A stretch of DNA of 64,000 bases from Escherichia coli (lineage in GTDB: Bacteria; Pseudomonadota; Gammaproteobacteria; Enterobacterales; Enterobacteriaceae). The translations under genes and the position numbers were made by a program. Below, piece by piece: positions 10,560 to 34,298 of the stretch (positions are counted from its first letter, which is position 1; every line of letters starts with the position of its first letter). Location of the stretch: the NCBI RefSeq assembly GCF_003334305.1, contig NZ_QOWS01000003.1; one strand, 5' to 3'. The notes below the pieces were generated by a model. It did not search any database. It had not been told where the DNA came from and saw nothing but the letters and a program-made list of their open reading frames with translations.

Positions 10560-10806
10560 TTATTGGATTCTCCTTATTATTTGCGGCGCTTTTTTCACTT
10601 ACCGGAGGTTATATGGAACCTGATCCCACGCCTCTCCCTCGACGGAGATTAAAACTTTTCCGGTAAGCCCGTCTTTTCACGGCGTTACCGGATGCGTAAG
10701 GCCGTGACGTTTTAACGTCCCTGCTCAGCTTTATTACCTTCAGGTAAGGCTTCGCCACGCCTGAAGACATTTCTGTACTGTTTCAGACAGTGCGGAGGGA
10801 CTCCTT
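10560..10806 (+). promoter_or_regulatory. mgtA 5' leader region (approximate extent), containing the mgtL leader ORF
   Basis: Long untranslated region ahead of mgtA with an embedded proline-rich leader peptide; the sensing function is established knowledge, the boundaries are approximate. Confidence 0.45.
10613..10666 (+). CDS. mgtL: mgtA leader peptide MgtL ([17 protein letters not shown])
   Basis: 17-codon ORF with RBS (GGAGG) about 140 nt upstream of mgtA; sequence matches the known leader peptide. Confidence 0.8.
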
Positions 10807-27154: not shown

Positions 27155-27242
27155 AAATGGGGCTTCTTGTGGTGGATTTAAATATTGCTGCATTCCTCAC
27201 CCTAAAAGATGAGCAATGAATTTCTATTGCGCTCGATCGGTT

Positions 27243-27275
27243 CCCTCTCCCTTAGGGAGAGGGTTAGGGTGAGGG
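27243..27275. repeat. Small intergenic palindromic repeat (boxC-like, name from memory), core GGGAGAGGGTTAGGGTGAGGG
   Basis: Palindrome CCCTCTCCC-TTAG-GGAGAGGG; near-identical copy at 31312..31348. Confidence 0.45.
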
Positions 27276-27287
27276 TAAAACGCAAAC

Positions 27288-28802
<1,515 letters not shown>

Positions 28803-30166: not shown

Positions 30167-31248
30167 TGCAACCTTTTGGCGTACTTGACCGCTATATCGG
30201 TAAAACTATTTTCACCACCATCATGATGACGCTGTTCATGCTGGTGTCGCTGTCGGGCATTATCAAGTTTGTCGATCAGCTGAAAAAAGCCGGGCAGGGG
30301 AGTTACGACGCGTTAGGCGCAGGAATGTATACCTTGCTGAGCGTGCCGAAAGATGTGCAAATCTTCTTCCCGATGGCAGCTCTGCTTGGGGCGTTGCTTG
30401 GTCTTGGGATGCTGGCGCAGCGCAGCGAACTGGTGGTGATGCAGGCTTCTGGTTTCACCCGTATGCAGGTTGCGCTGTCGGTGATGAAAACCGCCATTCC
30501 GCTAGTCTTGCTGACGATGGCGATTGGTGAATGGGTCGCGCCGCAGGGCGAGCAGATGGCGCGTAACTACCGTGCGCAGGCGATGTACGGCGGCTCGTTG
30601 CTCTCTACCCAGCAAGGCTTATGGGCGAAAGATGGCAACAACTTCGTCTACATTGAGCGGGTTAAAGGTGACGAAGAGTTAGGTGGCATCAGCATTTATG
30701 CCTTTAACGAAAATCGTCGTCTGCAATCCGTACGCTATGCCGCTACTGCGAAGTTTGACCCGGAACATAAAGTCTGGCGTCTGTCGCAGGTTGATGAATC
30801 TGATCTGACCAATCCGAAACAGATCACCGGTTCGCAGACGGTGAGCGGCACCTGGAAAACCAACCTCACGCCAGACAAACTGGGCGTGGTGGCGCTGGAC
30901 CCGGATGCACTCTCAATCAGCGGTTTGCACAACTACGTGAAGTATCTGAAGTCGAGCGGTCAGGACGCTGGACGTTATCAGCTCAACATGTGGAGCAAAA
31001 TCTTCCAGCCGCTATCCGTGGCGGTGATGATGCTGATGGCGCTGTCGTTCATCTTTGGCCCACTGCGTAGCGTACCGATGGGCGTGCGTGTGGTCACCGG
31101 TATCAGCTTCGGTTTTGTCTTCTACGTACTGGACCAGATCTTCGGCCCGCTGACGTTGGTTTATGGCATCCCGCCGATCATCGGCGCACTGTTGCCAAGC
31201 GCCAGCTTCTTCTTAATCAGCCTGTGGCTGTTAATGAGAAAATCGTAA
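30166..31248 (+). CDS. lptG: LPS export ABC permease LptG
   Basis: 360-aa membrane ORF; ATG overlaps the lptF stop (TGATG). Confidence 0.92.
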   Translation: MQPFGVLDRYIGKTIFTTIMMTLFMLVSLSGIIKFVDQLKKAGQGSYDALGAGMYTLLSVPKDVQIFFPMAALLGALLGLGMLAQRSELVVMQASGFTRMQVALSVMKTAIPLVLLTMAIGEWVAPQGEQMARNYRAQAMYGGSLLSTQQGLWAKDGNNFVYIERVKGDEELGGISIYAFNENRRLQSVRYAATAKFDPEHKVWRLSQVDESDLTNPKQITGSQTVSGTWKTNLTPDKLGVVALDPDALSISGLHNYVKYLKSSGQDAGRYQLNMWSKIFQPLSVAVMMLMALSFIFGPLRSVPMGVRVVTGISFGFVFYVLDQIFGPLTLVYGIPPIIGALLPSASFFLISLWLLMRKS

Positions 31249-31311
31249 CCAAGCAAGGGAGCGAAAGCTCCCTTTCACATTGTTGATAAAGTCAAATACG
31301 AGTTCGATCGG

Positions 31312-31348
31312 TCCCCTCGCCCCTTTGGGGAGAGGGTTAGGGTGAGGG
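31312..31348. repeat. Second copy of the boxC-like palindromic repeat
   Basis: Same GGGAGAGGGTTAGGGTGAGGG core as at 27243..27275. Confidence 0.45.
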
Positions 31349-31366
31349 GCACAGACCGCACCTGAC

Positions 31367-32869
31367 TTACCTTCTTCTTCCCCCCAGCAAACTCCCCAAC
31401 ATCCCGCGTACAATCTGATTCGTCACCTGGCGGGCGGCGCTTTTCGCCATTGTTTGCACCACACCATCTTTCTTCCCGCCGCGTGGTCCGGTAGTGCCAA
31501 ACAAAATATCCTTTAATCCACCAAGAATGCCGTCATCCACCGCCACCTCTTTCCCTTTCGCGGGGGGATTATTTTGCTGCTCGGCGCTTGCCTGTACGCC
31601 TTTTTGCAACATCTCATAGGCGGATTCCCGGTCCACCTCATCCTCGTACTTGCCATACACCGGAGAGTGATTAATCAAGCCATTACGCTCATCTTCCGTC
31701 ACCGGTCCCATCCGCGAACAAGGCGCAATCACCATCGCCCGTTCCACCACTGAAGGACTTCCTTTCACATCAAGAAACGAGATTAACGCCTCGCCGGTCC
31801 CCAGTTCCTGGATTGCCTTTTCGGTATCAAATGCCGGATTGGCCCGCATGGTTTGCGCCGCAGCTTTTACCGCTTTCTGATCTTTGGGCGTAAAAGCCCG
31901 CAAAGCGTGTTGAACGCGATTACCGAGCTGCCCGAGCACATTATCCGGAATATCAGACGGGTTTTGCGAAACGAACCAGACGCCTACGCCTTTTGAGCGA
32001 ATAAGCCGTATCACCTGCTCAATCTTATCCAGCAGTACCTGCGGTGCATCGTTAAACAGCAGATGTGCCTCGTCGAAGAAAAACACCAGTTTTGGTTTCT
32101 CCAGATCGCCCGCTTCCGGCAATTGTTCATACAACTCTGAAAGCATCCACAGCAGGCTGGCGGCGTACAGTTTCGGCATCTGATAAAGCTTCTCGGCGCT
32201 GAGGATATTGATAACGCCTTTACCGTTGGTATCGGTGCGCATCCAGTCTTTGATATCCAGCATCGGCTCGCCAAAGAAGTGTGCTGCGCCTTGCTGTTCC
32301 AGCGACAACAGTCCGCGCTGGATGGCACCAACCGATGCGCTACTGATATTACCGTACTGATTCTGGAAAGATTTGGCGTTATCGCCGATGTACTGGGTAA
32401 TCGCCCGCAGATCTTTAAAGTCGAGCAGCAACAATCCCTGATCGTCAGCAATACGGAAGATGATATTCAGCACGCCAGATTGCACATCGTTGAGATTCAA
32501 CAGCCGCGCCAGCAACAGCGGCCCCAGATCCGAAACCGTCGCCCGCACCGGATGGCCTTTCTCGCCAAAGATATCCCACACCACCACCGGATTAGCATGC
32601 GGTTGCCAGTCATTGACGCCGATATTTTTAAGCCTTGCGAGTAGTTTTTCCGATGCCGTTCCTGCCTGCGCGATGCCGGTCAGATCGCCTTTCACATCGG
32701 CCATAAACACCGGAACACCGATTTCCGATAGAGACTCCGCCAGTTTTTGCAGCGTGACAGTTTTACCCGTCCCCGTTGCGCCAGTAATCAGCCCGTGACG
32801 GTTAGCCATTCCCGGCAGTAAAAACAGTTCTGTGTCCGGCGTGCGGGCAATTAACAGGGGTTCGCTCAT
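31367..32869 (-). CDS. yjgR: DUF853 P-loop ATPase YjgR
   Basis: About 500-aa ORF with Walker A GATGTGKT; start set at MSEPLLIAR. Confidence 0.85.
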
Positions 32870-34213: not shown

Positions 34214-34298
34214 GCCGAAGTGGCGAAATCGGTAGACGCAGTTGATTCAAAATCAACCGTAGAAATACGTGCCGGTTCGAGTCCGGCCTTCGGCACCA
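34214..34298 (+). tRNA. leuX: tRNA-Leu (anticodon CAA)
   Basis: 85-nt sequence GCCGAAGTGGCGAAATCGGTAGACGCAGTTGATTCAAAATCAACC...GGTTCGAGTCCGGCCTTCGGCACCA with long variable arm and encoded CCA. Confidence 0.92.

Follow-up and report, generated by a model that had tools for sequence, protein, structure and literature searches.

Two strain-variable BoxC repeats of Escherichia coli and the association of their family with YcjD-like DUF559 genes

Introduction

BoxC is an imperfect-palindromic repeat of roughly 60 bp, which is found only between genes and in about 20-30 copies per chromosome in many Escherichia coli. The family is said to go back to Bergler et al. in 1992 and Bachellier et al. in 1999, and PIT elements were reportedly described by Hoyne and Maher in 2000. 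Here we report on two BoxC copies within a stretch of 64,000 nucleotides from an E. coli genome (RefSeq assembly GCF_003334305.1, contig NZ_QOWS01000003.1), which we refer to as the window, and on the physical association of BoxC-type repeats with genes that encode YcjD-like DUF559 proteins. Copy 1 is located in the spacer between holC and pepA, and copy 2 in the spacer between lptG and yjgR.

Hoyne and Maher described BoxC anew under the name PIT, and Holder et al. (2015, PMC4666352) later called it TMECO. In strain MG1655, TMECO comprises 23 copies, all intergenic, which follow the pattern CCCTCNCCC-N3-6-GGGNGAGGG-N3-GGGNGAGGG and are divided into subtypes by the second loop, with TTA designating type A and CCG type B (PMC4666352). 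Holder et al. found no bias of the copies in distance or gene class, and TMECO loci vary more between strains than control spacers do (PMC4666352). Elsewhere, BoxC is catalogued as a 56-bp repeat with 32 copies (PMC2267715). The isolated G-rich strand forms a triplex in vitro, as determined by circular dichroism (CD) and nuclear magnetic resonance (PMC4666352), and the same 21-mer gave G-quadruplex and hairpin signatures by CD (PMC5100583). Despite this biophysical work on triplex and G-quadruplex, BoxC has remained for 30 years without a known origin, spreading mechanism or function.

The REP/BIME (PU) sequences resemble BoxC in being palindromes scattered through intergenic DNA at the 3' ends of genes. 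However, the two are unrelated in sequence, and BoxC lacks the GCCGGATGCGGCGT...CTTATCCGGCCTAC-type consensus, has a third G block and is present in about 10-fold fewer copies. A cognate enzyme is known for REP (RAYT, TnpA-REP), and to our knowledge none has been established for BoxC. The BOX element of Streptococcus pneumoniae (boxA, boxB, boxC; PMC3049150) shares only the name with BoxC and is unrelated in sequence and organism.

Results

The 21-mer GGGAGAGGGTTAGGGTGAGGG, which is the exact HPG1 consensus (Kaplan et al. 2016, PMC5100583), occurs on the + strand of the window at 27255-27275 and 31328-31348. No third match with three or fewer mismatches was present in the 64 kb, and 100 dinucleotide-preserving shuffles of the window contained no match. 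The published TMECO pattern likewise selected only 27243-27275 and 31314-31348 in the whole window, with 0 matches expected by chance. The second loop is TTA in both copies, which assigns them to type A, and on sequence grounds both are ordinary type-A members of the already known BoxC family. Copy 1 is of the A subtype with a perfect stem, as are TMECO nos. 2 and 17: its blocks 1 and 2 make up a perfect 9-bp hairpin, with a third G block besides, and the copies most closely related to it are those of the CCCTCTCCC subtype at hrpB-mrcB and lldD-trmL. Copy 2, which reads CCCTCGCCCC-TTT-GGGGAGAGGG-TTA-GGGTGAGGGG when its trailing G is included (31314-31349, + strand), is of the 'A mm' subtype, the commonest in E. 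coli, with a G.A mismatch between blocks 1 and 2 and a G.T mismatch between blocks 1 and 3. Its 36-mer is identical to K-12 TMECO nos. 7, 11 and 15 (Table 1 of PMC4666352).

An earlier note on this DNA, which was made from the letters alone, had described two near-identical palindromic repeats in the holC-pepA and lptG-yjgR spacers and had used the name 'boxC-like' for a dispersed intergenic family. Both repeats are present in these spacers and the name is right, since the published pattern, the 21-mer and the flanks agree. However, the arm of copy 2 is CCCTCGCCCC and not CCCTCTCCC, and the likeness between the copies runs past the extents given for them into the 5' flank, where both have TCGATCGGT (from 27233 in copy 1 and from 31304 in copy 2).

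Comparison with the catalogued repeat families of E. coli identified both copies as BoxC/PIT/TMECO. We aligned 18 type-A copies, which comprised 15 from K-12, one from Enterobacter and the two from the window, and obtained the consensus CAAAAA.G.GC.CGAACGGTC-CCCTCGCCCCTTTGGGGAGAGGGTTAGGGTGAGGG-GAACAG.C..GCAC, which both window copies fit, flanks included. All 15 of the K-12 loci fetched are intergenic, and RefSeq carries no annotation of the repeats at these 15 loci. The window copies agree with the BoxC family in their three blocks, TTA second loop and flanks, in lying strictly between genes and in copy number, and they do not differ in kind from the listed copies; both loci are unoccupied in K-12 MG1655 and hence are missing from K-12 lists.

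Gene context was taken from a genome that is identical over both regions. The spacer of copy 1 measures 133 nt from the pepA stop codon (27288-27290) to the holC start (27154), with both genes on the minus strand, and the 3' end of the full element adjoins that stop codon, from which the core is 12 nt away. The spacer of copy 2 measures 118 nt between the convergent genes lptG (ends at 31248) and yjgR (stop at 31367), with the element sitting between a terminator-like hairpin of lptG (31255-31274) and the yjgR stop codon and its core about 18 nt past the latter. The holC-pepA spacer also contains an inverted fragment, CCTCACCCTAA, which probably remains from a second copy that once faced copy 1 head to head. 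Coordinates of these features are collected in Table 1.

Using a query of 101 nt around copy 1 against 5,426 complete E. coli genomes, we found 97,495 places in 5,409 of them, with a median of 20 and a maximum of 37 per genome, and a copy 2 query gave similar genome-wide numbers. The motif is therefore not confined to the two sites in the window but occurs at about 20 places per genome, in line with the dispersed family that the earlier note had proposed. Of the copy 1 places, 97,421 (>99.9%) are chromosomal. Plasmids account for 74-355 of about 100,000 places, depending on the query (copy 1 or copy 2), and the plasmid occurrences include an exact 36-nt match to copy 2 on the 154-kb record NZ_CP074792.1.

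Both window loci are strongly polymorphic, which agrees with the published variability of TMECO loci. In K-12 MG1655, neither site holds a BoxC and both spacers contain REP-type sequence; REP/BIME units likewise occupy both spacers in O157:H7 and many other strains. Of the 5,426 complete genomes, 1,405 (26%) have the full copy 1 allele and 1,798 (33%) that of copy 2. At lptG-yjgR the two alleles observed measure 118 bp (BoxC) and 160 bp (a REP-like element). The holC-pepA spacer is a hot spot with multiple alleles: besides the BoxC allele (133 bp) there are alleles with one (159/162 bp), two (257 bp) and three (353 bp) tandem BIME/REP units (window 27155-27287 compared with L002:2282-2440, L138 and L140-L144). 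The entire interior of each spacer is swapped between alleles: the window alleles resemble the REP-type units of K-12, O157:H7 and others at the spacer ends only, and no 'empty' allele free of a repeat was found at either spacer among the haplotypes read. Both spacers appear to be permissive slots that take either repeat family, and the occupation of the same spacers by BoxC or REP/BIME argues against a locus-specific function.

Linkage between the two copies was surveyed with a 4.65-kb query in a spread sample of 59 chromosomes, of which 11 carried both BoxC alleles, 13 carried one and 35 carried neither. Among seven alternative haplotypes that were read, all four BoxC/REP combinations occur, which led us to reject a linkage of the window copies to each other. 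The earlier note had placed the repeats on either side of the pepA-lptFG block, which is correct as to position; because the alleles assort independently, the two copies are not a unit bracketing pepA-lptFG, and the arrangement has no structural meaning.

Folding with ViennaRNA, which was limited to hairpins and scored by z-values against shuffles, gave GC-rich hairpins at both copies (Table 1), which bears out the stem-loop potential suggested earlier. The minus-strand RNA of 27155-27290, which covers the spacer and the pepA stop codon, folded into a nested hairpin of -46.2 kcal/mol (z = -6.1; 0 of 200 shuffles as stable), because the fragment CCTCACCCTAA is the inverted complement of loop 2 and block 3 of copy 1. 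In the consensus fold of the 18 aligned copies, block 1 pairs with block 3. No U-tract follows the hairpin at either copy, where the minus-strand sequence is AACCGAUCGA and ACCGAUCGAA, and a terminator scan of the window called no site at either element. In addition, the terminator-like hairpin of lptG lies upstream of copy 2. We infer that the window copies are not intrinsic terminators.

The E. coli gene ycjD encodes a protein annotated as 'DUF559 domain-containing protein' (K-12 ycjD, L145:508-861), and it adjoins the fabI-ycjD BoxC, reportedly the very copy from which the family was originally described. Between ycjD and the fabI-proximal BoxC, a fragment of the gene's 3' end is present a second time and carries a degenerate repeat. 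The 120 best homologues of YcjD match Pfam PF04480 and PF18741, which marks the gene as one for a DUF559/MTES_1575 endonuclease of PD-(D/E)xK type, and NCBIfam assigns YcjD to NF007294. The closest solved relative is PDB 3hrl (E = 1e-27), and YcjD retains the ELDGGQH motif. The DUF559 clade also contains Vsr and the homing endonuclease I-Bth0305I (PMC3424549).

Almost all enterobacterial homologues of YcjD, from Enterobacter, Klebsiella, Kluyvera, Lelliottia, Leclercia, Phytobacter, Scandinavium and Franconibacter, end in ...PSPRPSP directly before the stop codon. The tail is encoded by CCCTCACCC-CGG-CCCTCTCCC, which is a type-B BoxC read in reverse complement. With the protein as the starting point, we assembled a motif-blind set of 16 gene contexts at 15 loci, which cover Alpha-, Beta- and Gammaproteobacteria, NC10 and one cyanobacterial plasmid; one context, from Klebsiella quasipneumoniae, is represented by two assemblies, L149 and L150. 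A C/G/G triple-block repeat lies over the stop codon or within about 30 nt of it at 14 of the 15 loci, and at the remaining locus, in Neisseria gonorrhoeae (L159), the repeat is degenerate and found on each side at about 130-170 nt. The gene resides between fabI and sapF in E. coli and between yggW and yggN in Enterobacter. In Klebsiella and Kluyvera its neighbours are cysP and a Dyp-peroxidase gene, with the name cysP coming from the copy of this context on the K. pneumoniae plasmid. That the DUF559 gene occupies different chromosomal loci by genus indicates that the repeat travels with the gene. The ycjD of ST69 and ST182 strains is known to have a 12-nt insertion at its 3' end (PMC12817139), and we found that this difference corresponds to exactly one BoxC block plus loop (loop 2; L156:1848-1881 compared with L145). 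Taken together, these results establish a physical association of YcjD-like DUF559 genes with BoxC-type repeats in every lineage examined. We found no paper that links DUF559 or YcjD with these repeats, although one may exist beyond the searchable literature.

The exact E. coli pattern is also abundant in lineages remote from Enterobacteria. A scan of species-representative genomes, which is not a taxonomic census, returned at least 120 loci from about five genomes. The betaproteobacterium Mitsuaria chitosanitabida (L011-L117) contains at least about 150 exact matches to the pattern, mostly in head-to-head doublets less than 200 nt apart, and among the matches listed the exact pattern was also found in a metagenome-assembled genome (MAG) of Methylomirabilota (NC10; L003-L010), a Contendobacter MAG (L018-L020) and a further MAG (L118-L122). 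Across the lineages listed, the three 9-nt blocks are invariant, and the loops and flanks are lineage-specific. Mitsuaria also has three paralogous open reading frames for proteins of 139-141 aa, each enclosed by an inverted pair of copies (spaced 401, 401 and 431 nt) in the arrangement '+ gene -', with C-termini that extend into the repeat. Their products are 50% identical to E. coli YcjD (E = 1e-28). We considered whether the inverted A+B pairs of E. coli are gene-deleted DUF559 cassettes, with A upstream and B downstream, and rejected this as a general account, since the Mitsuaria doublets are mostly head-to-head B/B. The A/B order does fit the E. coli pairs, locus L151 and the Mitsuaria cassettes, and the reading remains speculation.

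We also compared BoxC numbers with the presence of ycjD in a spread sample of E. coli chromosomes. Those with ycjD (n = 37) had 16-31 other BoxC places (median 22), whereas those without it (n = 22) had 2-20 (median 4.5; Mann-Whitney p = 8e-10), a contrast that is confounded by phylogroup. Some genomes have only 2 BoxC places and are probably of phylogroup B2.

Table 1. Features of the two window copies and of the loci compared with them
Feature	Position or locus	Strand	Description	Basis
Copy 1, core	27243..27275	+	CCCTCTCCC-TTA-GGGAGAGGG-TTA-GGGTGAGGG; type-A BoxC/TMECO	sequence, pattern match, 21-mer
Copy 1, full element	27229..27288	+	flanks 5' GCGCTCGATCGGTT, 3' TAAAACGCAAAC, family-typical	alignment
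Copy 1, RNA fold		-	-17.9 kcal/mol, z = -2.5	ViennaRNA
Inverted fragment CCTCACCCTAA	27195..27205	+	exact reverse complement of copy 1 loop 2 and block 3 (27264-27274); unique in window	
Copy 2, core	31314..31348	+	CCCTCGCCCC-TTT-GGGGAGAGGG-TTA-GGGTGAGGG(G)	pattern match
Copy 2, full element	31300..31360	+	flanks 5' GAGTTCGATCGGTC, 3' GCACAGACCGCAC	alignment
Copy 2, RNA fold		-	-26.2 kcal/mol, z = -3.0	ViennaRNA
E. coli K-12	L145		degenerate inverted copy at stop codon	
E. coli M7424	L156 (gene L156:1505-1881)		intact inverted copy at stop codon	
E. asburiae	L146		inverted B copy over stop codon, then A copy with core of window copy 2	
K. quasipneumoniae	L149, L150		inverted copy over stop codon	
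Kluyvera	L152		inverted copy over stop codon	
Further enterobacterium	L164		directly after stop codon	
K. pneumoniae plasmid	L158		pseudogenised gene with repeats, inside captured chromosomal segment	
ENA MAG	L151		inverted copies on both sides, '+ gene -'	
Two NC10-type loci	L153, L163		both sides, CCCTCCCCC/GGGTGGGGG variant, '+ gene -'	
Caulobacter flavus	L154		both sides, long-loop variant, '+ gene -'	
Salinisphaera	L161		both sides, '+ gene -'	
JGI metagenome contig	L162		both sides, opposite orientation, '- gene +'	
Marinobacter	L160		doublet just downstream of gene	
Picosynechococcus plasmid	L157		both sides, C5/G5/G5 variant, '+ gene -'	
N. gonorrhoeae	L159		degenerate direct copies, 130-170 nt away	
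Mitsuaria cassettes	L046:5881-6352, L047:1113-1584, L049:11516-12019			fetched through the motif (motif-selected)

Rfam 15 contains no family for these repeats and, at the gathering threshold, gave no match overlapping either BoxC copy; its four matches in the window all lie elsewhere, on the + strand. One, Ysr276 (Yersinia sRNA 276, a small RNA of antisense type; 28047-28241, 184.9 bits against a gathering score of 100), falls inside the pepA coding region, antisense to pepA. The others are naRNA4/CssrE, a nucleoid-associated non-coding RNA (345-422, 79.5 bits), a magnesium riboswitch (Magnesium-II; 10598-10713, 125.8 bits) and a tRNA (34214-34295).

Discussion

The best explanation of these results as a whole is that the window holds two solo BoxC copies in permissive spacers, which are neither a duplication nor a functional pair, and that their family is tied to DUF559 genes; we put the probability of this explanation at roughly 85%. 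The copies are most likely passive, non-autonomous repeats in permissive spacers at gene 3' ends, of which the two solo type-A copies would represent independent occupancies. The allele polymorphism and the published negative tests together suggest that neither copy has a locus-specific essential role. The C-rich strand of copy 1 would be part of the pepA-to-holC transcript and that of copy 2 part of the yjgR 3' untranslated region, where the transcribed copies would form stable GC-rich hairpins that may act at most as barriers to 3' exonucleases. As loci, the two copies are merely two more strain-variable sites in a family catalogued since the 1990s.

Several points weigh against this explanation. 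In the tests of Hoyne and Maher, as cited in PMC4666352, the family showed no promoter, terminator or polymerase-blocking activity in vivo; the duplex form gave no triplex, and in-vivo dimethyl sulfate (DMS) footprinting revealed no protection (PMC4666352). The 18 aligned copies contain 0 compensatory pairs and hence no covariation support for any one fold, which is explained by a nearly invariant core. A tblastn search detected no DUF559 gene in the window. E. coli chromosomes without ycjD still hold BoxC copies, 19 of them in one such strain (L155), and K-12 ycjD has lost the 12 nt of terminal repeat that other strains retain. The copy-number contrast is confounded because the distribution of ycjD follows phylogroups: ycjD occurs in A, B1 and C, and the other phylogroups have eefRABCD in its place (PMC12817139). 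Finally, the link to DUF559 genes is an association, and any mechanistic meaning given to it is interpretive.

The two copies could instead have arisen by local duplication, or could form a composite element that encloses pepA-lptFG, as both point the same way as direct repeats, with about 4.07 kb between them, and have the flank TCGATCGGT in common. We give this next to no credence: the shared flank belongs to the family consensus, the same element recurs about 20 times per genome, the copies differ in subtype (CCCTCTCCC versus CCCTCGCCCC), and the allele survey refutes it through the four combinations of presence and absence among strains. A different alternative holds that the copies are selected cis-acting RNA hairpins of the pepA-holC transcript and of the lptG and yjgR 3' untranslated regions, where they would define the 3' ends of mRNAs, shield them from 3' exonucleases or adjust the expression of holC. 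The hairpins predicted on the transcribed strands are strong and non-random (z = -2.5 to -6.1), both copies follow directly on stop codons (12 nt past pepA and about 18 nt past yjgR), and the REP/BIME units found in the same slots in other strains may mean that some structured element is favoured there. REPs can stabilise upstream mRNA. However, neither copy has a U-tract or a terminator call, lptG has a terminator-like hairpin of its own, and the BoxC allele is absent from most E. coli genomes at each locus. The family tests, as far as they are cited in PMC4666352, yielded no terminator or promoter activity, and Holder et al. saw no bias in distance or gene class (PMC4666352), which makes a selected RNA role unlikely.

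It has also to be considered that the copies act as DNA, through a non-B structure (an intrastrand purine triplex or a switch between G-quadruplex, hairpin and duplex) that would stall replication and destabilise the spacers. Both window loci are highly polymorphic, and the G-rich strand is the + strand in both copies, which on the K-12 map is presumably the lagging-strand template on this replichore. In agreement with such a role, the oligonucleotide triplex is stable in vitro, TMECO loci vary above controls (PMC4666352), and the same 21-mer has the CD signatures of both G-quadruplex and hairpin (PMC5100583). In contrast, neither the double-stranded form nor the DMS footprints in vivo gave any sign of a triplex (PMC4666352), and much of the holC-pepA variability is in the number of BIME units (1-3) in alleles without BoxC, which suggests that the spacer is variable whichever repeat sits there. 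We therefore regard a destabilising DNA structure as doubtful and favour passive occupancy of permissive spacers.

For the family, the juxtaposition with DUF559 genes provides a concrete candidate enzyme, which in E. coli is YcjD, and turns the question of how BoxC spreads into one that can be tested experimentally. BoxC may be a non-autonomous repeat tied to genes for YcjD-like endonucleases (DUF559; Vsr-fold PD-(D/E)xK), which may nick, mobilise or home into BoxC hairpins by analogy with RAYT and REP/REPIN. The gene with its inverted terminal repeats would then be the autonomous or founding unit, and solo and paired BoxCs, including the window copies, would be its non-autonomous derivatives or targets. 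We consider it an even bet that BoxC and its C/G/G variants in other phyla are the cognate DNA of YcjD-like DUF559 endonucleases and thus a second system of repeat and resident enzyme; alternatively, the DUF559 gene homes into repeats that already exist. The association would explain the 12-nt indel at the ycjD 3' end (PMC12817139), and it may lie behind both the large differences in BoxC copy number between E. coli phylogroups and the many hypothetical proteins with tails of the PSPxPSP or GEGxGEG type.

The arrangement resembles REPIN-RAYT in three respects. At the family level, YcjD-like genes are likewise resident genes flanked by inverted repeats; the flanking repeats match the dispersed copies nearby in their sequence variant; and in enterics there is usually one YcjD-like gene copy per genome, with repeat doublets common. 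The enzymes differ, in that the REPIN-RAYT enzyme is an HUH/Y1 (IS200/IS605-type) transposase, whereas YcjD-like proteins are predicted Vsr-fold PD-(D/E)xK endonucleases (PF04480, PF18741; 3hrl). Vsr and the EDxHD homing endonuclease I-Bth0305I belong with DUF559 to a common PD-(D/E)xK fold family (PMC3424549). Unlike these two, the YcjD-like genes examined here showed neither a cytosine methyltransferase partner nor an intron or intein context. Vsr nicks G.T mismatches, and the block 1/block 3 hairpin of the commonest E. coli BoxC subtype contains a mismatch of this class, which, speculatively, could make it a nuclease substrate.

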